Shown here piece after piece: positions 15,772-51,287 of a stretch of 51,347 nucleotides of DNA. Under the pieces are notes generated by a model, which did not search any database, was not told the origin of the DNA, and was given only the letters and a program-made list of their open reading frames with translations. This DNA comes from a virus. Where the stretch lies: the UHGV virus genome UHGV-0208865, one strand, 5' to 3'. How positions within the stretch are numbered: the stretch's first letter is position 1; each line of letters opens with the position of its first letter. A program made the position numbers and the translations under genes.

Positions 15772-16681
15772 GGGTTGCACAACCCGTGAGGTTTGTTTCG
15801 GTGTGGGGAACGACATTGTTGAGTGGTTCCCCGCACCGGACGAGTCGCCTGTTTCGACTAATGTCCATTCGGGCGACTCGCAGCGCCTATTGAATGGTCT
15901 CGCCTACATGGGTGGTTCTATGTATGGTGGTAGGCATTATGAGCTGTCGTGGTCATTCTTGAATCGCGAGCAGGCTAATACGTTCCGTGAGCTGTTTATG
16001 AACAGGACGGGCGAGTGGGTGACGTATCTGGACCCGTTCTCGATGAAGAACGTGTTGTCGCCTTTGATGGGTTTGCCATACTTGCATTACCATGTTGGTT
16101 CGCCGTTTGCTTTCAATGATTGGGGTAAGCAAGCACTGTTTCCTACGAAGGCTAACAATTCTCAGTCTGGGCATCCGGGTGTCGTGCTGAAGGCTGGTGT
16201 CCTTCAGATGAACAACAAGTTCCAGTCTACCGTTGATCGTCTGAATGGGCGGCAGGTGTCTTTGGCTTTGTCGAAGGTTGGAAGTTACACTGAGCGTGTT
16301 CTTGTGCCCGAAGGCCATAAGGGCGTGTTTTTGTCGTCTGGGCCGGAAGATGGTAAGAGTCCGTTTGCGTTTAATTTCCGTAAATTGACTGGTGTCTCTG
16401 ACACCTTCACTATCAATAAGAATACGGTGCGCGCACTTGATCCCGGTTTGTGGGAGTTGTCGATTCTTCCGAGGTTTGAAGGTGGACTCGATTGGACTAT
16501 GCTTCAGATCGTGCCCGAGGATACACACATCGACACAGCCGTTAACCTGTATGAGTTCGCGTATCCTTCAGGTGGTGGGAATCTTCAGGTTGTTCCTGGC
16601 TCGGCTAGTGTCGTGACTGTCAACAACTATCGTGGTCATTACACAGCTTCTGTGACGTTGGAGGAGGTTTACTCATGGTGA
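15758..16681 (+). CDS. Distal tail protein (Dit) candidate
   Basis: 307 aa immediately after the tape measure. Start uncertain (GTG 15758 overlaps the tape-measure end). Confidence 0.5.
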   Translation: MVSTRGCTTREVCFGVGNDIVEWFPAPDESPVSTNVHSGDSQRLLNGLAYMGGSMYGGRHYELSWSFLNREQANTFRELFMNRTGEWVTYLDPFSMKNVLSPLMGLPYLHYHVGSPFAFNDWGKQALFPTKANNSQSGHPGVVLKAGVLQMNNKFQSTVDRLNGRQVSLALSKVGSYTERVLVPEGHKGVFLSSGPEDGKSPFAFNFRKLTGVSDTFTINKNTVRALDPGLWELSILPRFEGGLDWTMLQIVPEDTHIDTAVNLYEFAYPSGGGNLQVVPGSASVVTVNNYRGHYTASVTLEEVYSW

Positions 16682-18474
16682 TGCAGGCTATTGGGTTCCC
16701 CAATAATAAACTAACTGGTTGGTCTGTCGTTGAGGATGCAGTATCGCTTGACCGCGATTCGACAACGGGTGGTTTCTCTGAGTATTCTCTTGAGGGTGCC
16801 GGATACGTTGAGGCTGCGGATGTGATGACGAAGGAGATTCGTCTTGACAGTCCTGTTTTTGGCCGTACTCACGCATTTGTCCGGTCAATTACTAACACCC
16901 CGTGGTCGTGGTCTGCGACGTTGAATGACCCTTTCTATCGTCTTGATGTGTCTGCTGAGGTTAAGCACCTTCAGGACGTGACGATGGACAAAGTTATCTC
17001 GCAGGTGTTCAAGGCTGCGGGTGTCGAGTCCCCAAAGGTGTATGTTGCTAAGCCGACTGCTAATGAGCGTAACCCATTTATTGCACCTAAGACCACTATT
17101 GCGACTAAAACGTACGATTTTGTTGGTGGTAAGGGTAATTTGTGGACTATCCTCAAGAGCTTCTTGTCTGCTAACAATTATCAGATTACGTGGGTTTATG
17201 ACACGATTATTCTGTTCGAGAACCACACGGTCCTTACGAGGTTCCAAGGCTCTACTGTAGACTATTCGATTCAGTGGGTTATTGGTGAGCCTTTCTCACA
17301 TATTGAGTGTACCTACTACCCTCCTGTAGTCCATGCCACGTCCTCGGACTACAAATCTGGCAATATTGGGGGTACTCGGCCTACTGTTCCAGGCGAAGAT
17401 CGTATTAGTCTTATCCACCCGCAACCGTCTAACAACAAGACGACAGTGGAGTCTATTAAGGCTGCTGAGGTTTTGTCGGTAGAGTCCGGAGAGACTAAAG
17501 AGTTTGTGCTTGAGATTCAAGGGACGATTGATTACCTGTATTCTCAGCCTGAGTGTGTGATGCCTAACGAGGTTGGCACCGACTTCAACATTAGGACTCG
17601 CGCTAACAATCAGACCTATTTCGCTCGTTCTGTGTATTCAGTCGTTGGTAAGGACAACAAGCCGATTACACCCGCGCAGTGGTATGCCGAGGGTGGTTCG
17701 CTCCATATCGAGAAAGGTGACGAGGCGAACCAGATCAAAGTGACTGTGACGGGCATGTCGAATGAGCGTCTAGCCCCTTACCGTATTGCCGAGTCGGACG
17801 GTCAGACCGACTACAGCACACTACGTATTTACGGGCACGCTTACCTGTGTGATCAGGAGACGTTGACGTTCTACACAGGCTACCCGTACAAGACGGATGC
17901 TGTGAAGATCGACAGCATGAACCTAACGACTAAGACCCAGGCGTATGAGGCTTGTGTGTATAAGGCTCAGAGTGCGTTTGGCTATTCTGCTGAGATGAAT
18001 TGGACTGGCACTGTTCCAATGCACGAGTCATACACGGATGTCGTGTATGACTTCGAGCGTGAACCTGTGTACTTGTCCGATGTCGATGCTTTTACGGGTG
18101 CGCCCCTACCAGAGAAGGCTGCTGAGAAGTGGCCGCAGGGTACGACCATGAAGAAGATCATGGACGACTTGTTGGAGTTCACGAAGAACAAGCCTGTGGT
18201 ATCGAATCAGCAGGTGTTTGGCCGCATTGCTGGGACGACAGCGGTGTATGACCGTTTTACGTGGCATATTAAGTCGGCTTCGTATGATGAGTCGAGTGTG
18301 AAAGCCTCTTGTGAAGCGCTTACTCAGGTGTCAGATGTTGCTACAATATTCGATAGGCCACGGGTTGCGGATTATCCTCTTGAGGCTGGTATTACGCTTC
18401 GAGAGTTGACGTTGAAAGGAGTGATGCACAATGAAGCACAATCTGCCGACCCCATCCCAGGCATGGGGAAGTGA
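16675..18474 (+). CDS. Tail-associated / baseplate protein (Tal-like)
   Basis: 599 aa after Dit. Synteny. Confidence 0.5.
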   Translation: MVMQAIGFPNNKLTGWSVVEDAVSLDRDSTTGGFSEYSLEGAGYVEAADVMTKEIRLDSPVFGRTHAFVRSITNTPWSWSATLNDPFYRLDVSAEVKHLQDVTMDKVISQVFKAAGVESPKVYVAKPTANERNPFIAPKTTIATKTYDFVGGKGNLWTILKSFLSANNYQITWVYDTIILFENHTVLTRFQGSTVDYSIQWVIGEPFSHIECTYYPPVVHATSSDYKSGNIGGTRPTVPGEDRISLIHPQPSNNKTTVESIKAAEVLSVESGETKEFVLEIQGTIDYLYSQPECVMPNEVGTDFNIRTRANNQTYFARSVYSVVGKDNKPITPAQWYAEGGSLHIEKGDEANQIKVTVTGMSNERLAPYRIAESDGQTDYSTLRIYGHAYLCDQETLTFYTGYPYKTDAVKIDSMNLTTKTQAYEACVYKAQSAFGYSAEMNWTGTVPMHESYTDVVYDFEREPVYLSDVDAFTGAPLPEKAAEKWPQGTTMKKIMDDLLEFTKNKPVVSNQQVFGRIAGTTAVYDRFTWHIKSASYDESSVKASCEALTQVSDVATIFDRPRVADYPLEAGITLRELTLKGVMHNEAQSADPIPGMGK

Positions 18475-19829: not shown

Positions 19830-20294
19830 CTATCTGGGCCACCCGTTGTCGAGTGTCCACTTGTGTTTCAGCTCGTGAACCAGGTAGTACACGAGGTGCC
19901 GGAAGGCATCACGGACATCGTTTGCGTCCTTGTAGCTCACATCTTTCCCTGTGAGCCACCATCCTAGGTTCTTCAGTGTCGCGTCCTTGACCAGGCCCTT
20001 GGCTTGTGCAGGTGTCTGGTAGTGGATGTCATCGACAAACCAGTCAAGGATTGCGTTCACCTTCACGGGGGTAAGGTCTGCTGTGAACTTGTTGGAAGGT
20101 CGCAGGTCGAACTGTTCAGCAACGACAGTAGCCTGCGGGTACTCGTCAAGGTAGTGCTTGATGAGTTCCGCTGTCTCGACATGTGTCGCACAGATGAACT
20201 GGTCGAAGTGTAGAATCTCCACCTCTTCTTCAACACGTGCCACAACGAGGCCGGTGTTCACACCGGGGTCAATTGCTATTACTGTCGTCGTCAT
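19830..20294 (-). CDS. RuvC-like Holliday junction resolvase
   Basis: Start MTTTVIAIDPGVNTGLVVARV (RuvC motif I-like IDPG), with RBS GGAGGAAGATAATG. 154 aa. Confidence 0.6.
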   Translation of the reverse strand: MTTTVIAIDPGVNTGLVVARVEEEVEILHFDQFICATHVETAELIKHYLDEYPQATVVAEQFDLRPSNKFTADLTPVKVNAILDWFVDDIHYQTPAQAKGLVKDATLKNLGWWLTGKDVSYKDANDVRDAFRHLVYYLVHELKHKWTLDNGWPR

Positions 20295-20562
20295 TATCTT
20301 CCTCCATCCAGTTTTCGGTGATGACTGCATATCCGGTACCCATGAGCCTGTTTCGGCCTGTCGGTGAGAGGCCACCAAAAATACCAGAGCGGAACTTTTT
20401 ACCGTCGATTGGTGTTTCTTCAGCTATCAGACAGTCTTGAAGGCATTGTTCCTTGACAGGGCACTCATTACAAAAAGCCCTCACAACTGTTTCGTAGAGT
20501 GTCGGGTCGTAGAACCATTCGGTTGGTGCTCCACTACAGGGTGCCTGCTTGTAGTCTGTCAC
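20269..20562 (-). CDS. whiB: WhiB-family (Wbl) transcription factor
   Basis: 97 aa. Four Cys in a C-x21-C-x2-C-x5-C arrangement (CSGAP...CNECPVKEQCLQDC) and an acidic tail. Typical of actinophages. Confidence 0.7.
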   Translation of the reverse strand: MTDYKQAPCSGAPTEWFYDPTLYETVVRAFCNECPVKEQCLQDCLIAEETPIDGKKFRSGIFGGLSPTGRNRLMGTGYAVITENWMEEDNDDDSNSN

Positions 20563-36909: not shown

Positions 36910-36951
36910 TTTTCGGCTTCCTTTCGGGTTGTTTCGTTTGCCGATACTTAA

Positions 36952-36980
36952 AGATTAGTGGGTAGGGCGTACGTTGTCAA
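36952..36980 (-). promoter_or_regulatory. Leftward promoter candidate (TTGACA-17-TAATCT) with a conserved leader
   Basis: Minus-strand TTGACA (+ strand 36975-36980) and TAATCT (+ strand 36952-36957) with a 17-nt spacer. The leader CTAATCTTTAAGTATCGGCAAACGAAACAACC is repeated at 33639-33715. Confidence 0.45.
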
Positions 36981-37054
36981 CATGAAAACATGTGATTAGG
37001 GACACATTGTTTAATGGTGGTTGTTAGCGGGTATGGAATAAGGAACGCGTGCGC

Positions 37055-37083
37055 GTAATAGCACCTTAGTTATGAGTTGTCAA
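37055..37083 (-). promoter_or_regulatory. Second leftward promoter candidate (TTGACA-17-TATTAC)
   Basis: Minus-strand TTGACA at + strand 37078-37083 and TATTAC at + strand 37055-37060. Confidence 0.4.
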
Positions 37084-37508
37084 TAGCTAGGCTATGTGTT
37101 GTGTGCGACAGGCTGTTAGGGCTGTTTGTTAGCAAGGTGAGAGCGGCGGCCCTGGCAGTTTATACCCTGTAGGGAGTGAATGTCAAGGTTTTAGTGTGTG
37201 TCGTTGGTTATATTGTGGGGCGTGTCAAGACAGCGACAGGGCCGGGAGGGATAACTAGACATCTCATAATGTGGATAGTTTTTGTGTTCGTGTTGACTTT
37301 AGAGTGAGAGTATGTTACTCGCATGGGCATAGCGTGGCGATTAGGTGGGTTGGTGGGTGTGGGTAGTGTGTAGGACAGCGTTTAAGGGGTCTAGAAGCGT
37401 GTCTGAGCGTGTTTTATAGTGTGGGTGGTAGTGGGTAGCCTTGAGTGGGTGTTAGGGCGTTGTAGGGGGCGTAGCGTAAATGTCATGACAATTCAATAGA
37501 GGTAGGTA

Positions 37509-37540
37509 TGCATATTATGCACTCGGTTGCATAATATGCA
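37509..37540. repeat. Perfect 13-bp inverted repeat TGCATATTATGCA-ctcggt-TGCATAATATGCA (operator/cruciform candidate)
   Basis: Read directly from the sequence. Confidence 0.7.
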
Positions 37541-37543
37541 GTC

Positions 37544-37574
37544 CTCGCGCGTACGCAGCTACGCGAGCGTTTTT
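37544..37574 (+). terminator. GC hairpin plus T5, a terminator-like element for rightward transcription
   Basis: CTCGCGCGTA-cgcagc-TACGCGAG-cg-TTTTT. Confidence 0.4.
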
Positions 37575-37731
37575 AACTTTATTAATATATAAATAATAAT
37601 GATAATATAATAATAAAAAAATTAAGTATAGATATAGATAGTTACTAATAATGTTTATTAATGGTTGATATTACACGTTAATAAATTAGTTATTGTGTGT
37701 AAATAATATTCTTAGTACGTAGAAAAAATAG
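37575..37731. other. AT-rich island (about 160 bp, over 85% A+T) in a genome that looks GC-rich on inspection; candidate DNA unwinding element
   Basis: ttattaatatataaataataatgataatataataataaaaaaattaagtatagatatagatag... Confidence 0.6.
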
Positions 37732-37808
37732 GGGGGACTACGCGAGGCGAAAATTAGGGGCCGTTGGTTGTGTTGGTTGCTTGCAGTTGATGCTAGTTCG
37801 TTGCAGTT

Positions 37809-37826
37809 GGTTGGTTGGTTGGTTGG
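37809..37826 (+). repeat. (GGTT)4GG tract, a two-tetrad G-quadruplex motif
   Basis: ggttggttggttggttgg. Confidence 0.5.
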
Positions 37827-37855
37827 TAAGGCAGGGGTAAGCTAGGTTAGGTGAG

Positions 37856-37918
37856 GGGTAGTTAAGTTAGGTAAGCCTAAGTTAGGGGGAGGGTAGTTAA
37901 GTTAGGTATACCTAAGTT
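37856..37918. repeat. Two 28-bp direct repeats (35-bp period), each containing a TTAGGTA..CCTAA palindrome. Copy 2 has the perfect palindrome TTAGGTATACCTAA. Iteron/operator candidates.
   Basis: gggtagttaagttaggtaagcctaagtt / gggtagttaagttaggtatacctaagtt. Confidence 0.6.
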
Positions 37919-38218
37919 TTGTTAATGGGTTTGGGTCCGGGGTTAGGGTGGGTATGTTGTGATGCGCGTCTCAAAATTGGGTATGGGTTTGGGTCGGGTA
38001 TGCGTTAGGGGATATGGGGCCGATGGTTGGTAGGACGCGGGGAGTGTGCTTGACAGGCGGGTGATTCGGGGCGTTTTTGAGGCAACTAAAAAATCAAATG
38101 CTTAGTAAGTGTAAAGATGGAGTGGGGTGTCATACCAGTTTGTGTATCTGGGATGTACTGGCACATACCCGTTTGTGCATACCCCTCAATAGAGTGGGTC
38201 AGATCACACGCTATCTTG

Positions 38219-38247
38219 TTGACTTTAACCGTCTATCCTTCTATGCT
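38219..38247 (+). promoter_or_regulatory. Rightward promoter candidate (TTGACT-17-TATGCT) for the operon starting at 38281
   Basis: TTGACT 38219-38224, TATGCT 38242-38247. Upstream direct repeats CATACC(A/C)GTTTGTG at 38133 and 38164. Confidence 0.5.
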
Positions 38248-38280
38248 TAAAACATTAACACCAAACGCAAAGGAGAAATC

Positions 38281-44298: not shown

Positions 44299-44383
44299 CC
44301 CCTTGTGGCGGAATAGGCAGACGCGCTCGACTCAAAATCGAGTTCCGAAAGGAGTGTGAGTTCGATTCTCACCGAGGGGACCA
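44299..44383 (+). tRNA. tRNA-Leu (anticodon CAA), type II with a long variable arm, CCA encoded
   Basis: Hand fold. Acceptor CCCCTTG/CGAGGGG, anticodon stem CTCGA/TCGAG with loop CTCAAAA, T-arm GTGAG-TTCGATT-CTCAC, 3' ACCA. Confidence 0.65.
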
Positions 44384-44547
44384 CCAAGCACCGGACGATG
44401 CTGGATGATTAGGCCATAGCCGCCTGCCGCTCTGATCAAGCGGACGTGCCGGTTGCCGTGACGGGGGTCACGTGCGGGGTAGCACCCTAGGACTGACAAT
44501 TTTTGTGTGATGGTTTTTGTTTCGTCAGTCAACAGCACCCCTTCTAA

Positions 44548-44620
44548 CGGAATGTAGCGCAGTAGGTAGCGCACCTGGTTTGGGACCAGGGGGTCGTGAG
44601 TTCGAGTCTCACCATTCCGA
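44548..44620 (+). tRNA. tRNA-Pro (anticodon TGG)
   Basis: Hand fold. Acceptor CGGAATG/CATTCCG, D-arm GCGC-agtaggta-GCGC, anticodon stem CCTGG/CCAGG with loop TTTGGGA, T-arm GTGAG-TTCGAGT-CTCAC. Confidence 0.7.
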
Positions 44621-44677
44621 CGTTGCACATGTGTAACACCTAGTTCCCAGGTGTCCTCCGGGACTACCTGGGTTTAA

Positions 44678-44748
44678 TCCCAGATAGTGTAATGGTAGCA
44701 TGGCAGGTTTTGGCCCTGTCGGACTAGGTTCGAGTCCTAGTCTGGGAG
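44678..44748 (+). tRNA. tRNA-Gln (anticodon TTG) candidate
   Basis: Hand fold. Acceptor TCCCAGA/TCTGGGA, anticodon stem GCAGG/CCTGT with loop TTTTGGC, T-arm CTAGG-TTCGAGT-CCTAG. The D-stem is weak. Confidence 0.5.
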
Positions 44749-44836
44749 CGCTTGACGATGAGGTTGCTCGATAGCACAAAGTGTCTCGACCAAGACACCC
44801 TCATCGAACGGCTGGGTTGCCCTGGTCAGGTAACAA

Positions 44837-45285: not shown

Positions 45286-45684
45286 ATGAAGCTACGACTT
45301 ACTAACTTCGACTCAAACACTTACGAAGACACTGACGGTTCGTGCGATATGTGTATGTATACAGGTATGCTCGACCATCCTGAGTACACCTTTACCACCA
45401 GTTTCGGTGATAGCTATACTATCGAGGGCTGGTGGTCCGACTGGGGGCACCTTACGACCATTGACATCAATCTTCCTGTGTTCACTGCTTGGTTGCATGA
45501 CGCTGAGTTCAAGGAACCAACAGAGCTTATTGAAGAAAATAAGGAATACACTTGGCTTTCGGATGAGCGCTTCTGGGATAGGTTTCTACAGGATGTCCTT
45601 AAAGCAGCACAGTGGTGCAGCAACGAGGAAGAACTCAATGAAGAACTCGACTGGGCGCTGAAGGGGGCTAACAATGCTGACTGA
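45286..45684 (+). CDS. Hypothetical protein
   Basis: RBS GAAAGGAGAAACAAA-ATG. Confidence 0.45.
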   Translation: MKLRLTNFDSNTYEDTDGSCDMCMYTGMLDHPEYTFTTSFGDSYTIEGWWSDWGHLTTIDINLPVFTAWLHDAEFKEPTELIEENKEYTWLSDERFWDRFLQDVLKAAQWCSNEEELNEELDWALKGANNAD

Positions 45685-46006
45685 TGAACAGTTTGATGAG
45701 CTTGCGGAGAAGCTGCTGAAGAAGATCGCACCTCAACTCGGTGTTGAACTTGAGGAAGAGCAGTCTAAGTCTGCCACTGTCGTACGGGACAAAGACGGCA
45801 CAGAATACGATCTCGAACAGTGTGCTATCGGACCTTGCGTAGTCACAGTCGAAGGTGTCTACTACTTCTATGTTGAGTTAGGTATCCCAGGTAATACTGA
45901 TTACGAGGAATACTGGATGAGTACTTGGGGTGATAAGTTCAGTACGAGGGAACTAGCAAGTATCCTTACGGAACTTGGTGGAGACTTCGATGTCATCCAG
46001 GACTGA
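45674..46006 (+). CDS. Hypothetical protein
   Basis: ORF track. Confidence 0.45.
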   Translation: MLTDEQFDELAEKLLKKIAPQLGVELEEEQSKSATVVRDKDGTEYDLEQCAIGPCVVTVEGVYYFYVELGIPGNTDYEEYWMSTWGDKFSTRELASILTELGGDFDVIQD

Positions 46007-46050
46007 TACACTGGCCTCGTAACAACAACAACGACAACCAAGGAGTAACG

Positions 46051-46347
46051 ATGTCTATCGTTGATCTCGCAGTCAAGCTGGGCAAGGCTTTTGAGGGTAC
46101 CTACTCGTCCGTCGTTAAGAATGACGAGATGAAGACGACCATTACCCAGGAGGCCCGTACGGGTGTCTACACGATCACCACCAAGGACACTGATCTGATT
46201 GCCCTTCTCGACCAAGGCATTGTCGAGAAGGCTCCTGTGACGATGATTAAGCCTATGACCTATGGTGTCGTCTCGCCCGGTGTCTACACCGTTCCCGGTC
46301 ATAAGATGCAGGAGATTCTTGAGAATCGTCCGATGGATTATCTGTGA
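46051..46347 (+). CDS. Hypothetical protein
   Basis: RBS CAAGGAGTAACG-ATG. Confidence 0.45.
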   Translation: MSIVDLAVKLGKAFEGTYSSVVKNDEMKTTITQEARTGVYTITTKDTDLIALLDQGIVEKAPVTMIKPMTYGVVSPGVYTVPGHKMQEILENRPMDYL

Positions 46348-46450
46348 TTGTCGGCCTGAGACAGCGCGCCTCTGATCTCAGGAATAGGTAACTGAGGGGT
46401 TCGTCCTTTCGGGTACCGGCCTTACATGAGGGTTCATAATTCATGAGGAC

Positions 46451-46487
46451 TCATCCCCCTATCGACTAACACTCGGTAGGGGGATGA
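46451..46487. repeat. Perfect 11-bp inverted repeat TCATCCCCCTA-(15 nt)-TAGGGGGATGA
   Basis: Read directly from the sequence. Confidence 0.6.
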
Positions 46488-46522
46488 TACTATATGTGTG
46501 AGTAGAGTCACACGATTATCTG

Positions 46523-46572
46523 TTGTGGATTGTTCGGCCTGTCAGCTACACTCAAGTTGTCAGGCCGAACAA
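46523..46572 (+). promoter_or_regulatory. Promoter candidate (TTGTGG-18-TACACT) embedded in a 12-bp perfect inverted repeat TTGTTCGGCCTG...CAGGCCGAACAA; an operator-over-promoter arrangement
   Basis: Read directly. A related half-site GATTGTCGGCCTG sits at 46347-46359. Confidence 0.45.
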
Positions 46573-46592
46573 CTACGAAAGGAATGTTCAAT

Positions 46593-47933
46593 ATGAAGCG
46601 TTTTCTTGCGACGACTGGTGTCGCACTGCTGATGATTGCTACGGCTGCTGCTACTGCCAATGCTGCCGACAACACCGAGATCAAGGCCGAGGTCACAAAG
46701 GCCACGTCCTCGTCTCGACAGACCTCTTCCGAGGTCAACGTGGGTGGCACCTGGGCCGTGGAGAAGCTGGCTGTCGGCCAGCAGTTCACTGTCTCGACGG
46801 TGCCGAATGAGGGTAAGGCCCCGTTCGTCTGGAACGCCTCGTTCCCGTTCACGCTCGATGATGGGTCTGTCGTCGGTGAGTGTGAAGCCAACGAGGCAGA
46901 GCTGACCTGTAAGGTCACTGAGATTCCTGAAGCCTACAAGGACAAGACGAACGTCAAGGGCACGTGGTGGGCACGCGCTCGCCTTCAGGGTGGTGCAATT
47001 GGCACCACCGAGGGTACGATCACCCTGAACGGTAAGGCCGTGAAGACCCTTGTCTGGGGCGACAAGGAGGGCACGGGCGAGTGTACTAATGATTGTGCAA
47101 ACCCGGCCCATTATGAATACGCTAACCCAGAGAACGTGAAGTTCGGGTGGTCTAACGCTGATGGGACTATCAGCTGGGGCATTAAGTGGATTGCCAACGG
47201 GGGTGTCGAGTACAGCGTCAAGGACTTCGACGCGAAGCTGGGTACGACCGTGAAGTGCGCGAAGTCCGACACGTGGAATCCTGATACGACAGAGATCATT
47301 ACTGCCACCCAGGTGGACCCGAACACGATCAAGTTCACGGCCCCTGAAGGCTCCAAGACGTGTGTGACGTACCCGCCTGAGCACACTGTCGTTCCTGAAG
47401 GTCAGACCTCTGCGACCAACCATGCCGAGGTGAACGGTATGAAGCTCGAAGCTACGGCGACGGTTAAGAGCAATGGTGGTACTAATGGTGATGGTTCTGT
47501 GAAGCCGACTCCGGCCCCTGCTCCTAGTGTCACGCCTGAGCCTACTCCTACGCCGTCTGAAGACCCGAAGCCTGAGCCGTCTCCGTCTACCCCTGCACCC
47601 GCTCCGTCTGCGGAACCGACCCCCGCTCCTGCGCCTTCTACACCTGCTCCTAAGCCTTCCACTGAGCCTGCTCCTAAGCCTTCTGATGAGCCGCAGTCTG
47701 CACCGTCTCCGACCCCTGAGCCGCGTGTGACGACTTCTCCGGTGCCTACGCCCTCGCCTGAGACCCCGAAGGCTGATGTGCAGTCCACCGTTGCGCCCGC
47801 TCCTGAAGCCAAGCTCGCTAAGACGGGTGCTGCCTCTGAAGGTATCGTGATCGCGCTTGTTACGGTCATTGCTGGTATCGCTGCCTGTGTCGTCGCGTGG
47901 CGTGCCGGTCGATTTGGCAACGACCATATCTGA
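46593..47933 (+). CDS. Secreted cell-wall-anchored surface protein: signal peptide, about 300-aa globular domain, Pro/Thr/Ala/Glu-rich stalk, LAKTG sorting signal, TM, then a positive tail
   Basis: MKRFLATTGVALLMIATAAATANA signal. (PTPAPAPS/PEPTPTPS...) stalk. LAKTG at 47814-47828 followed by the hydrophobic AASEGIVIALVTVIAGIAACVVAW and RAGR. LAXTG is the class E sortase motif in actinobacteria. Confidence 0.7.
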   Translation: MKRFLATTGVALLMIATAAATANAADNTEIKAEVTKATSSSRQTSSEVNVGGTWAVEKLAVGQQFTVSTVPNEGKAPFVWNASFPFTLDDGSVVGECEANEAELTCKVTEIPEAYKDKTNVKGTWWARARLQGGAIGTTEGTITLNGKAVKTLVWGDKEGTGECTNDCANPAHYEYANPENVKFGWSNADGTISWGIKWIANGGVEYSVKDFDAKLGTTVKCAKSDTWNPDTTEIITATQVDPNTIKFTAPEGSKTCVTYPPEHTVVPEGQTSATNHAEVNGMKLEATATVKSNGGTNGDGSVKPTPAPAPSVTPEPTPTPSEDPKPEPSPSTPAPAPSAEPTPAPAPSTPAPKPSTEPAPKPSDEPQSAPSPTPEPRVTTSPVPTPSPETPKADVQSTVAPAPEAKLAKTGAASEGIVIALVTVIAGIAACVVAWRAGRFGNDHI

Positions 47934-48093
47934 GTGATACACTAGGAGCCTCCTTCCTAACAGGGTAGAGCGCCAGTGCTGTTTAGTGCTGGCGCTCTGT
48001 CTTACCCAAAACACAGTGTGGCACAGGTCACACAGGTTTTGCTTGTACCCTACACTAACACGTACTAATATTGACTGCGTAGAAGGAGGGACA

Positions 48094-48642
48094 ATGACAG
48101 ACCCAAGTAAGGTTGTGGAAACGTGGCTCAAGCGAGTTGGCCGCAGCAGCTTTAGTTACTCTGACAGGGCTGCGAAGCAACCAGCAAGCGTCAAAAAGTT
48201 CAACCCGGTGAAACTAGACGAGACAGCAGAAAAGCTCATCGACAGCATCTACAAATGGTGGTACGGCGAGACTAAGACAAAGCCGCGATTCAATGATGTC
48301 GTTATCTGCCTGAGTCAGTACGTGAGTCGGAACAACAACCTAGCAAACAAGCTCGTTCCGCATGTACCAGACCTTAAAGACTTAAATTATATCTGGGACA
48401 AAGACTCTCGTATCAGTGTTACAAGCGGCGACCCAGACACATACATGGGCATCAGCCGACAACACATCAACAAGTGGTATGAGCACTACAGCGCCATAGA
48501 AACAGACTTCGGCCAACTAGCCGACGAAGTTATCACAGACTGCATTGCAGCACCAAGCACACTGAAGTTTGCTAAAGCCGCTGCACTCATGGTTGTACTC
48601 AACGAAAGGAGAACTAATGAGACCAGTACGACAGCACCATAA
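48094..48642 (+). CDS. Hypothetical protein (trimmed to ATG 48094)
   Basis: RBS GAAGGAGGGACA-ATG. Confidence 0.45.
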   Translation: MTDPSKVVETWLKRVGRSSFSYSDRAAKQPASVKKFNPVKLDETAEKLIDSIYKWWYGETKTKPRFNDVVICLSQYVSRNNNLANKLVPHVPDLKDLNYIWDKDSRISVTSGDPDTYMGISRQHINKWYEHYSAIETDFGQLADEVITDCIAAPSTLKFAKAAALMVVLNERRTNETSTTAP

Positions 48643-49694: not shown

Positions 49695-49996
49695 TGGAAG
49701 AAATTAGCTTGCGTGATTTCGGTAAGAGCCTGAGAAGGGAGATTCCTAGTATCGGCTCTACGAAGGTCATTAGGTTTCTGCGCCGTGAAGGATACCTGAA
49801 GAAGGGTCGGCATATTAGCGAGCCTACGGAAAAGGCCAAAGGACTGCTTGGTATCTGGCGTGTCTATAAGAATGGTAGAAACTCGTATCCCCAGGTGTAT
49901 GTCACGAAAGAGGGTGTCCGCGTGTTCACTGATATGATTATCTCCGAGTATGAGGACTTCGGTCCTTGGGAGATTAGGAGAAGTTATAGTGACTGA
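49691..49996 (+). CDS. Hypothetical protein
   Basis: ORF track. Confidence 0.45.
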   Translation: MMEEISLRDFGKSLRREIPSIGSTKVIRFLRREGYLKKGRHISEPTEKAKGLLGIWRVYKNGRNSYPQVYVTKEGVRVFTDMIISEYEDFGPWEIRRSYSD

Positions 49997-51011
49997 CTGG
50001 CATAATCTGATCGCTGATTACAACCTGTGGTGCGATAACTACGATGAGGGGCGTAGTCGAGCACTTGACCGTGTTATCGTCCACCATAACGCTGGCAAGG
50101 CTATGTCGCATGGTGGTGTCCTTGCAGCGTTTAACCATAATGGCACGTCTGCGCACTACAACGTGGACATTGACGGCAGTACCGCACAGTTCGTCCACGA
50201 TAAGGACACTGCCTGGCACTGCCCCGGCGTTAACTCGTGTTCGATTGGCATTGAGCACGCTAACTCCACTGGCGCTGAGGGTGGCTGGGACATTGGTGAA
50301 GCGACGCTTGATGCCGGTGCGCACCTGACTGCGGCTCTGTGTCGTGCGTATGGTCTTGGCCGTCCGCAGTGGCGTGTCAACGTGTTCCCCCACTCGGACT
50401 TCTATTCGACTGCCTGCCCCGCGTCTCTGCGGGATAAGTACGCTGGTGAGTACATGGAGAAGGCTCAGGCGTACTATGACAACCTTGATGCTGAGATCAT
50501 TCAGTCTGAAGGCTGGGTGTCGCAGGATGGTGGCTGGTGGTACCGCACCTCGGATGGTGGTTGGGAGACCGGCTGGTTCCCTGTGAACGATAAGTGGTTC
50601 TATGCCAACGAGAAGGGTTGGTTGCAGGCTGGTTGGCAGCATATCGACGGCCACTGGTACTTCCTGCACGATATGCACGATTCGCGCTACGGCGAGATGG
50701 AGACTGGCTGGCAGAAGATCGGTGAAAACTGGTTCCTCCTGAACGACAAGGGCCAGATGCAGACCGGCTGGCAGCTCGTCAATGGCAAGTGGTACTTCCT
50801 TGAGGAAAACGGCGCTATGCGTACGGGCTGGCTGTCGTACAAGGGCAGCGATTACTTCCTTACCAAGGACGGCTCTATGGCTGTCGGCCTCGCTCAGACG
50901 CGCCTTGATGGTGCGTGCTCGATTTTCGGTGAGGACGGTAAGCTGATTGTCGGCAAGATGGTTGTCGAACAGGACGCTGACGGCCTTGTTCGCCTGGTAG
51001 AATCGAAGTAA
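49989..51011 (+). CDS. Endolysin: N-acetylmuramoyl-L-alanine amidase (amidase_2/PGRP-like) with C-terminal choline-binding-type (GW/WYF) cell-wall-binding repeats
   Basis: GTG 49989 after RBS AGGAGA. Catalytic region HHNAG...HYNVD...CPGVNSCSIGIEHAN. About 6 repeats of TGWQ..NGKWYFL. Confidence 0.75.
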   Translation: MTDWHNLIADYNLWCDNYDEGRSRALDRVIVHHNAGKAMSHGGVLAAFNHNGTSAHYNVDIDGSTAQFVHDKDTAWHCPGVNSCSIGIEHANSTGAEGGWDIGEATLDAGAHLTAALCRAYGLGRPQWRVNVFPHSDFYSTACPASLRDKYAGEYMEKAQAYYDNLDAEIIQSEGWVSQDGGWWYRTSDGGWETGWFPVNDKWFYANEKGWLQAGWQHIDGHWYFLHDMHDSRYGEMETGWQKIGENWFLLNDKGQMQTGWQLVNGKWYFLEENGAMRTGWLSYKGSDYFLTKDGSMAVGLAQTRLDGACSIFGEDGKLIVGKMVVEQDADGLVRLVESK

Positions 51012-51032: not shown

Positions 51033-51287
51033 ATGGCTAATGAAGTCTTGACCACTGACCGTACTAAGTGGTACTTGTTGACCCCGGAGCGGCGTAAGGC
51101 GCTGTACGCGCTGTTTGCGGCTCTTGGTGCGATTGGTGTCGCTTACGGCGGTTGGACTGCCGAAAGCTGGGAGCAGTGGTCTACTGTCGCTCAGCAAGTT
51201 CTCTCGGTGATTGGTCTGCTTGTTGCGACTGTTCACACTGGCGGTGTTTATACGGCTCCGTCGTATGGCACTCCTGACGCTGAGTGA
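51033..51287 (+). CDS. Holin candidate
   Basis: 84 aa with two hydrophobic helices. RBS TAGGAGGAACTTTC-ATG immediately after the endolysin. Confidence 0.55.
   Translation: MANEVLTTDRTKWYLLTPERRKALYALFAALGAIGVAYGGWTAESWEQWSTVAQQVLSVIGLLVATVHTGGVYTAPSYGTPDAE

Follow-up and report, generated by a model that had tools for sequence, protein, structure and literature searches.

Phage-encoded proteins that alter or reach the surface of the bacterial cell are known from several systems. The exclusion proteins Llp of phage T5 and Ltp of the Streptococcus thermophilus phage TP-J34 are exported, early-expressed lipoproteins that reside at the membrane and act on FhuA or on the tape-measure protein, and PblA and PblB of the Streptococcus mitis phage SM1 are tail proteins that are released at lysis and re-bind choline on neighbouring cells. 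SasX (SesI), an LPXTG surface protein of a phiSPbeta-like Staphylococcus prophage, enhances colonisation (PMC7047976). Phage-borne sortase substrates such as SasX are accordingly known, mainly from temperate Firmicutes phages, and the MSCRAMMs (microbial surface components recognizing adhesive matrix molecules) are classical adhesins. Class E sortases recognise the motif LAXTG, and the housekeeping sortase SrtA of Actinomyces oris belongs to this class (PMC8225981). The present study concerns a gene at positions 46593-47933 (plus strand) of the UHGV virus genome UHGV-0208865, the whole 51,347 nucleotides of which were analysed and are referred to below as the window.

The product of this gene is very probably a sortase-anchored, MSCRAMM-type surface protein. 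We put a probability of about 0.55 on the fuller reading, purpose included, that it is a mobile accessory gene of oral Actinomycetaceae phages encoding a two-domain, wall-anchored MSCRAMM-type adhesin whose purpose is adhesion. Like Llp and Ltp, the product would be a phage-encoded, exported protein changing the surface of the infected cell, but it has no known sequence or fold relation to them and is predicted to be wall-anchored on a long stalk; like PblA and PblB, it would be a phage-encoded adhesin that ends up on a bacterial surface, but those two proteins are not known to have a signal peptide or a sortase signal. SasX, with its role in adhesion and colonisation, is likewise an accessory, sortase-anchored surface protein encoded by a phage, but it comes from a temperate Firmicutes prophage and has LPXTG for a class A sortase, whereas the present gene has LAxTG of the class E type, lies in an early region, is carried by two phages without a detectable integrase, occurs in four unrelated phage lineages as well as in an epibiont chromosome, and encodes a protein that resembles MSCRAMM N2-N3 regions in its model. 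The substrates of A. oris SrtA and the Streptomyces chaplins (PMC8225981) share the motif and the inferred enzyme, but they are encoded by bacterial chromosomes, whereas this gene is delivered by viruses, and the phage copies form a clade apart from the branch of chromosomal Actinomycetaceae copies. What is new is the LAxTG, actinobacterial version of a phage-borne sortase substrate, its early-region position in phages without detectable lysogeny functions, its spread over four unrelated oral phage lineages, and an indicated recent, traceable transfer into an epibiont of the candidate phyla radiation (CPR). A literature search returned no description of the gene.

The open reading frame (ORF) extends from an ATG at 46593 to a stop codon at 47931-47933 and encodes 446 amino acids (aa); its ribosome-binding site, GAAAGGA (46577-46583), lies 9 nt 5' of the ATG and is kept in relatives, in the phage D_HF4_2 and in the copies found in Saccharibacteria (TM7). 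The preliminary description of this locus, made from the sequence alone, had proposed a Gram-positive anchor layout of signal peptide, globular domain, stalk, LAKTG, transmembrane helix and RAGR tail, and the translation bears this out. The signal peptide, MKRFLATTGVALLMIATAAATANA (aa 1-24; 46593-46664), has a basic n-region, a hydrophobic core, an AxA site and no lipobox, with a predicted signal peptidase I cut after ANA and before AD; it was assessed by reading the translation rather than with a predictor program, and equivalent signal peptides with AxA sites are present in the homologues of D_HF4_2 and the Actinomyces phage xhp1. The globular region (aa 25-302, 278 aa) consists in the AlphaFold model of two beta-sandwich domains, the first (aa 25-168; 46665-47096) with two conserved Cys pairs and a WGDxxGxGxCxxDC loop, and the second (aa 169-302; 47097-47498) with a third Cys pair, an invariant K159, and near-invariant D187, N252 and N257 (domain numbering). 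The Lys, Asp and Asn of domain 2 (K159/D187/N252 or N257) are in our estimation reminiscent of a CnaA-type isopeptide triad, for which they are a candidate only.

A stalk rich in Pro, Thr, Ser, Ala, Glu and Lys follows (aa 303-407; 47499-47813), with a GC content of 65% and degenerate repeats, and is presumed to be a wall-spanning spacer; its 105 aa are close to the roughly 90 aa first estimated. The sorting signal consists of LAKTG (aa 408-412; 47814-47828), the hydrophobic segment AASEGIVIALVTVIAGIAACVVAW (aa 413-436) and RAGR, followed by FGNDHI and the stop codon (47829-47933 from the hydrophobic segment onward). This organisation recurs in every homologue, and no other ORF in the window has such a signal. 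Two minus-strand ORFs overlie the gene (46560-48131 and 47402-47920) and look like by-products of a GC-rich, Pro-rich coding strand, an effect also seen at the TM7 locus.

The sorting motif is conserved. L[AP]xTG stands at the same place in all 120 of the closest database homologues, and LAxTG is kept in all 69 phage copies examined in IMG/VR: as LAKTG in 26/26 relatives of the window phage, in 37/37 xhp1-like contigs and in one further contig (L012), and as LAHTG in 5/5 contigs of a viral lineage of ~123 kb. LAKTG followed by a helix and a basic tail also closes the homologues of D_HF4_2 and xhp1. Close homologues differ in the length of the stalk (44-106 aa) and in the sequence of the helix, but not in the motif or the N-terminal domain (N-domain). 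Because every closest homologue and every phage relative has L[AP]xTG at this place, LAKTG is not a chance motif; loss of the signal in relatives had been named beforehand as a finding that would count against anchoring, and every phage relative keeps it. Assignment of LAXTG to the class E housekeeping sortases of actinobacteria agrees with the literature (PMC8225981), and Actinomyces and Actinobaculum have chromosomal homologues that carry LARTG. LARTG is the motif in both of the chromosomal copies from Actinomycetaceae in which the C-terminus can be seen.

Scans of the protein against Pfam, NCBIfam and PHROGs gave nothing usable, the PHROGs result being a weak match over the signal-peptide region (phrog_1717, E 0.007), and searches of PDB sequences, made both with the single sequence and with a profile of the family, returned no significant match. 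The globular region, for which a domain search had been suggested, was recognised by none of the sequence libraries. AlphaFold, run on a small but diverse alignment, produced an all-beta model of two beta-sandwich domains (pLDDT 90, pTM 0.76), the best structural matches of which are the ligand-binding N2-N3 regions of the MSCRAMM adhesins SdrC, FnBPA, ClfB and Cna. In Foldseek, ranks 1-19 and rank 21 belong to the MSCRAMM class (Cna, E = 5e-10), with pilins and cohesins scoring below them, and the best match in a viral structure library is an uncultivated siphovirus protein labelled 'Clumping factor'. The tandem IgG-like (DEv-IgG type) pair of beta-sandwiches found in MSCRAMM ligand-binding regions is present in the model, which is disordered after the last strand pair (residues 249-266).

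In the family alignment, three Cys pairs are conserved, C73, C82, C140, C144, G132 and D133 are among the conserved columns, and a WGDxDGDGxCDxDC loop is seen, of which the window protein has a partly degenerate form. Matches to Pfam Big_8 (best 2e-6) are confined to distant chromosomal relatives, and the xhp1 copy gave a non-significant E of 0.25 against Collagen_bind. The protein differs from the described MSCRAMMs (Cna, ClfA/ClfB, SdrC/D/E/G, FnBPA, ACE, UafA and the Srr1/2 binding regions) in having only 9-15% sequence identity to them, in the combined size of its two domains (about 280 aa vs about 300-330 aa), in being Cys-rich with three conserved pairs, in its LAxTG motif, and in a Pro-rich stalk that replaces SD or B repeats. 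A Gram-positive pilin was considered and rejected: the sequence has no YPK-type (YPKN) pilin motif and no canonical E-box, its motif is LAKTG, there is no sortase among the neighbouring genes scanned, and pilins rank lower by fold. The family is narrow, since an exhaustive search turned up no more than 31 related clusters among 1.84 billion cluster representatives; in public annotations its members appear as 'hypothetical protein' or under automatic labels, among them 'collagen adhesin precursor' and 'translation initiation factor-like protein'. One naturally occurring variant of 280 aa (P0127 / P0173) has a single domain, consisting of domain 1, the stalk and LAKTG with no domain 2; it comes from a viral contig of 38.8 kb, the size of D_HF4_2, and bears the third-party label 'collagen adhesin precursor'.

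The gene had been described as occupying a typical moron position, and its accessory, moron-like behaviour is evident among relatives of the window phage. A search anchored on the 182-aa gene downstream recovered 29 relatives from IMG/VR, one of which is truncated and uninformative; in 26 of the 28 informative ones the adhesin gene lies immediately 5' of the 182-aa gene, and in the two most divergent (L047 and L048) it is absent, with the flanks intact and adjacent. Its GC content is 59.4% vs 51.7% for the genome, and the GC content at third codon positions (GC3) of the N-domain is 0.71 vs about 0.57. The gene is under purifying selection, with pairwise ratios of nonsynonymous to synonymous substitution (dN/dS) of 0.09-0.12 for the N-domain among relatives, a range shared by the endolysin.

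The gene is carried by at least four unrelated, highly prevalent oral phage lineages. Searches of GenBank phages with megablast, using the 7-kb region, found no match, and with tblastn found only D_HF4_2 (38.7 kb, from saliva) and xhp1; the fourth lineage is that of ~123 kb in IMG/VR (L017-L019, L052-L056). Homologue clusters numbered 1,722. In a six-frame comparison the adhesin was the only protein common to the window phage, D_HF4_2 and xhp1, with similarity between amidase domains in two of the three pairwise comparisons (the window phage with D_HF4_2, at 49% identity, and D_HF4_2 with the xhp1 lysin). In all three phages the gene lies among early genes: in D_HF4_2 between small early genes and the polymerase and primase, and in xhp1 in a rightward early operon beyond the integrase and regulator switch region. 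Among ORFs of integrase size, D_HF4_2 has no integrase. In the ~123-kb lineage the gene ends a run of small unannotated genes and adjoins a divergent block that includes an MreB-like protein, and one contig of this lineage has genes of the IS605 OrfB/TnpB type nearby.

Copies are also present in the chromosomes of Saccharibacteria. The closest non-phage relative (P0122, ending in LPVTG; 48-49% identity) was found on three contigs, each from a different sample, where it stands between rplA and rplJ and forms a sharp GC island (55-70% vs a background of 38-50%). The L11, NusG and L7/L12 proteins of these contigs are identical in sequence to NCBI entries for TM7 oral taxon 352 / Candidatus Nanosynbacter, which come from contigs as long as 772-824 kb. 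In a tree of 10 sequences P0122 groups with the phage copies, not with the chromosomal copies of Actinomyces or Actinobaculum. A second TM7 allele (P0107, P0057, P0079) occupies the same rplA-rplJ slot in three further samples and is a mosaic, with a phage-like N-domain, a signal peptide of the D_HF4_2 type, and a stalk and LPVTG anchor of the P0122 type. Its N-domain is 92-94% identical in amino acids and 88-91% in nucleotides to the alleles of the 51-kb phages, and in a neighbour-joining tree (no bootstraps) it nests inside the phage-allele diversity, which reaches down to 79%. All six TM7 copies carry LPVTG, the copies are GC islands, and purifying selection acts on the alleles found in TM7 (dN/dS 0.17-0.24).

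Directly upstream of the second TM7 allele lies a 37-nt hairpin of the D_HF4_2 type. The repeated hairpin CTCTCACCTATAACCC-AAACAC-GGGTTATAGGCTTT stands between early genes of D_HF4_2 (contig L015, at 16590-16635, 17179-17215, 17815-17851 and 20260-20300), and copies 94-97% identical are found upstream of the Nanosynbacter adhesin genes, at about 7950-7990 of contig L049 and at 591-636 of L050. Taken together, the raised GC of the island, the position of the copies within phage diversity and the phage element that came along with them indicate that the adhesin domain was recently transferred from phages into TM7 chromosomes. A search of the literature found no link between Saccharibacteria and sortase substrates.

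The TM7 island holds a second high-GC gene (L050, 2085-2594; L049, 9572-10153; L051, about 2061-2660), which encodes a protein of ~170 aa made up of a signal peptide, a brief stretch rich in Cys, a Pro-rich stalk and a sorting signal with LAKTG. A 245-aa minus-strand ORF on L049 is spurious, being the antisense of this small Pro-rich gene. A strict rule that LAxTG marks phage copies and LPVTG marks TM7 copies holds for the adhesin, and its value as a host marker is reduced by the LAKTG of the island gene.

As to the cell in which the phage copy is expressed, the codon preferences of the window phage (CAG 0.85, CCA 0.11, TTA 0.01) are like those of xhp1 and Actinomyces genes and opposite to those of TM7 genes (CAA 0.61, CCA 0.57, TTA 0.19). 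A cluster of tRNA-Leu(CAA), tRNA-Pro(TGG) and tRNA-Gln(TTG) at 44299-44749 reads TTG, CCA and CAA, codons that xhp1 and Actinomyces genes seldom use and that dominate in TM7 genes; because the phage tRNAs would supply rare codons, by the usual compensation argument, a high-GC actinobacterial host is favoured despite the 52% GC of the phage. A contig scan found only phage contigs, in metagenome-assembled genomes labelled Actinomyces, Atopobium and Rothia, and for this reason did not identify the host. One of the phages, xhp1, is a prophage of Schaalia odontolytica that is induced by TM7x, binds TM7x and infects it to a limited extent (PMC13578794, a 2026 study that has no mention of the gene, of a sortase or of LPXTG). 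Such binding and limited infection give phage DNA a physical way into TM7. Saccharibacteria may also take up DNA by natural competence.

Under the adhesin reading, the gene would be transcribed with, or beside, the early genes, and its product would be exported by the Sec pathway, with aa 1-24 removed by signal peptidase I. Both beta-sandwich domains would then fold outside the membrane, probably locked by the three disulfides, while the precursor would be held in the membrane by the C-terminal helix and RAGR tail. The class E housekeeping sortase of the host would cut LAKT|G and join the Thr to lipid II, hence to peptidoglycan, and the ~105-aa Pro-rich stalk would span the wall and so expose the binding domains on the outside of the cell. 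There the domain would bind a conserved ligand that the Actinomycetaceae/TM7 consortium presents at its surface, most plausibly on Actinomycetaceae, such that the infected cell would stay stuck to further host cells and progeny would be released among them; the same domain with an LPVTG anchor would let an obligate epibiont hold that host. We infer the anchoring, the time of expression and the ligand of the phage adhesin, and favour a conserved Actinomycetaceae ligand; the domain is kept under selection in two unrelated parasites, the phages and the epibiont. If so, retention of an MSCRAMM-type LAxTG adhesin in phages, two lineages of which have no detectable lysogeny functions, would imply that surface remodelling of a doomed cell pays for the virus, and the family would offer a compact, Cys-stabilised adhesin scaffold with interchangeable anchors.

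Several points weigh against this reading. The host is a presumed one; the GC content of the phage (52%) falls between that of Schaalia (xhp1, 65%) and that of TM7 (about 46%); spacers predict that many oral phages interact with Saccharibacteria, some of them co-targeted by Actinomyces (PMC10746230); and LAKTG alone is no marker of the expressing cell, because the TM7 island itself encodes a small LAKTG protein. The window protein matches no Pfam adhesin domain (Big_8, Collagen_bind, SdrG_C_C), the TYTFTDYVD motif of Clf and Sdr proteins is not visible in its sequence, and no latch strand is demonstrated. Its LAKTG form is not matched by the anchor models TIGR01167 (LPXTG_anchor) and PF00746 even at E <= 10; both models are built on LPXTG, and of the LPVTG variants from TM7, P0107 passes TIGR01167 with 16.9 bits (cut-off 15.9) and P0122 reaches 15.3. 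What a phage without detectable lysogeny functions would gain from an adhesin is a matter of argument, not of observation, and receptor masking would fit a conserved binding domain equally well.

Receptor masking belongs to the alternative that survives best, superinfection exclusion, which we regard as possible without thinking it probable. The anchored domain would here bind the receptor of the phage (perhaps of TM7) in cis, or incoming tail proteins, in both cases shielding the infected cell from further infection, and a mask fixed to peptidoglycan would in addition spare progeny from loss on wall debris after lysis. Llp of T5 and Ltp of TP-J34 would be its functional analogues. An early-region position in three phages and predicted covalent anchoring to the wall suit this role, as does carriage by four unrelated lineages, at least two of which have a common endolysin type, suggesting one host group. 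The strong conservation of the binding domain would be expected if it bound a conserved host receptor, and at the same time its low diversity speaks against an arms race with variable tail proteins. PADLOC returned no match and PHROGs no similarity to a known exclusion or defence protein, a domain carried beyond the wall on a ~105-aa stalk is poorly placed to act against DNA injection at the membrane, and the chromosomal homologues lie in ordinary housekeeping neighbourhoods, not in defence islands. An epibiont, moreover, has no obvious use for a mask, yet its copy of the domain is under purifying selection.

A more specific form of the adhesin reading takes in the TM7 copies: the domain would be a consortium adhesin with its ligand on Actinomycetaceae, moved between lineages by phages and recently carried into TM7, where it was refitted with LPVTG. 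As a whole this is a tentative proposal that we hold to be rather unlikely. If true, one binding domain would serve two parasites of one bacterium, a virus and an epibiont, and its display by phages may modulate both epibiont attachment, through recruitment or competitive blocking, and cell-to-cell spread. It would also represent a rare and directly traceable case of phage-mediated gene flow from the pool of Actinobacteria phages into a CPR bacterium, and would put forward a concrete candidate for the machinery, still poorly defined, by which oral TM7 hold on to their hosts. The indicated transfer links the three members of a model episymbiosis, which are Schaalia/Actinomyces, TM7 and their phages, and provides candidates for two questions, namely how oral TM7 attach to their hosts and how DNA passes from Actinobacteria or phages into CPR bacteria.

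We consider it improbable that the protein is a colonisation factor of the lysogenic-conversion type, which would bind a human or salivary-pellicle protein (for example collagen, fibrinogen or proline-rich proteins) or another oral species and so benefit the bacterium. SasX is a precedent for such a factor (PMC7047976), the fold matches adhesins of host matrix proteins, and xhp1 is a temperate prophage of S. odontolytica; neither the window phage nor D_HF4_2, however, has an integrase among its ORFs of integrase size, the xhp1 gene lies in the rightward early operon past the switch region, which is not a typical position for expression in a lysogen, and TM7 cells live on bacteria, not on host tissue. 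It is more improbable still that these phages infect, or also infect, Saccharibacteria and use the gene to keep an infected epibiont attached to its Actinomycetaceae host while the phage replicates, the TM7 copies being its source or domesticated versions. The recent exchange of the domain with TM7 chromosomes, phage intergenic element included, would accord with this, as would the behaviour of xhp1 towards TM7x (PMC13578794) and the prediction from spacers that many oral IMG/VR phages infect Saccharibacteria (PMC10746230). The codon usage of the phage is opposite to that of TM7, however, and its tRNAs supply codons already dominant there; the 69 IMG/VR phage copies and the two Actinomycetaceae chromosomal copies have LAxTG as against LPVTG in all six TM7 copies; and a TM7 GC island nested in phage diversity points to transfer from phage to TM7. 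We give practically no weight to a functionless passenger or decaying host fragment, as the raised GC and GC3 might suggest, since the gene is intact in all copies examined, with dN/dS about 0.1, and retained in four unrelated lineages, or to a structural or decoration protein of the virion, for which Ig-like folds are common, a role made very unlikely by a cleavable signal peptide and sorting signal incompatible with cytoplasmic virion assembly and by the place of the gene in the early region, outside the structural module, and its absence from two relatives.

The gene is phage-borne, as first described: the window is a whole siphovirus-type genome of ~51 kb, relatives of which were assembled circularly. 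On the plus strand at 1.4-19.7 kb are the terminase, portal, capsid/protease and tail genes with a tape-measure protein of 1,766 aa, and on the minus strand at 20.5-36 kb a replication block (family A DNA polymerase, primase, Sak4, exonuclease, helicase), followed by a run of small plus-strand genes. The endolysin (49950-51011) has an Amidase_2 domain and repeats of the choline-binding type (CW_binding_1), and the holin lies at 51033-51287. The gene was said to sit just before the lysis cassette, which is not the case: five genes, about 2 kb, intervene between it and the endolysin, coding for a 182-aa unknown protein, a dUTPase, an NrdH-like glutaredoxin and unknown proteins of 140 and 101 aa. 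The assembly of a relative is circularly permuted, with packaging genes after the holin, so that the element is a free ~51-kb phage and no island. No integrase or sortase was found among the unannotated window ORFs of 167-302 aa; small ORFs were only partly scanned.

Two small genes 5' of the adhesin cassette (45674-46347), of 110 aa and 98 aa, are likewise absent from L047, which has no adhesin gene, and in several relatives (for example L028-L031, L040 and L044-L046) the 98-aa gene lies about 1.1 kb farther from the adhesin gene; because these genes are missing or displaced in relatives, the early region near the cassette is a hotspot of insertion and deletion.

The preliminary description gave the gene a promoter/operator and a terminator of its own. 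Upstream are conserved palindromes that might serve as operators; a promoter scan found no sigma-70-type promoter upstream of the gene on the plus strand, and in D_HF4_2 and xhp1 it forms part of early operons and lacks a separate terminator. In the window, a putative terminator is represented only by predicted hairpins at 47962-48043 (plus strand), namely a 19-bp GC-rich stem at 47962-48003 (I9) and a hairpin at 48016-48033 followed by a U-rich run; the region has a fold z of -4.6, and a terminator scan matched at 48016-48033.

A conserved and strongly structured non-coding element of the phage backbone lies farther upstream (46348-46490, plus strand), with several hairpins, the last of them a 15-bp GC-rich hairpin at 46451-46487 (inverted repeat I3). 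The RNA fold z is -7.0 for 46340-46595, no Rfam family or tRNA-like call was obtained for the element, and it is also present in the adhesin-less relatives L047 and L048, directly 5' of the 182-aa gene. Next comes the palindrome TGTGAGTAGAGTCACA (46497-46512, plus strand; TGTGA-N6-TCACA, a CRP/FNR-type consensus), noted as a candidate operator or activator site. It is the only perfect match in the window and its exact sequence is present in 20 of 32 relatives, with TGTGnGTAGAGTCACA invariant in six diverged upstream regions, one of which has an unrelated flank. Matches with at most one mismatch number five in the window, four of them intergenic, vs 2.75 expected, which is not above chance, and the site is absent upstream of the D_HF4_2, xhp1 and TM7 copies; for these reasons we dropped the CRP-type operator reading, and the palindrome remains a conserved local element. 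Just 5' of the ribosome-binding site is an 18-nt inverted repeat (I1, 46530-46572, plus strand; 89% complementary), a candidate stem-loop of the 5' untranslated region or operator, the hairpin of which is present in both the minimum free energy and the centroid fold; its outer pairs co-vary, and two-sided changes in the relatives L028 and L013 preserve pairing.

An ORF-free stretch of 1.3 kb (36951-38280) parts the divergent minus-strand and plus-strand gene blocks of the window. Rfam gave no match in it, and it holds two TGTGA-N6-TCACA sites with one mismatch each. With a strong skew of G over C, G-rich TTAGGT-like iterons at 37822-37911 and an 18-nt palindrome at 37504-37545, it is probably an origin or a divergent early-promoter region.

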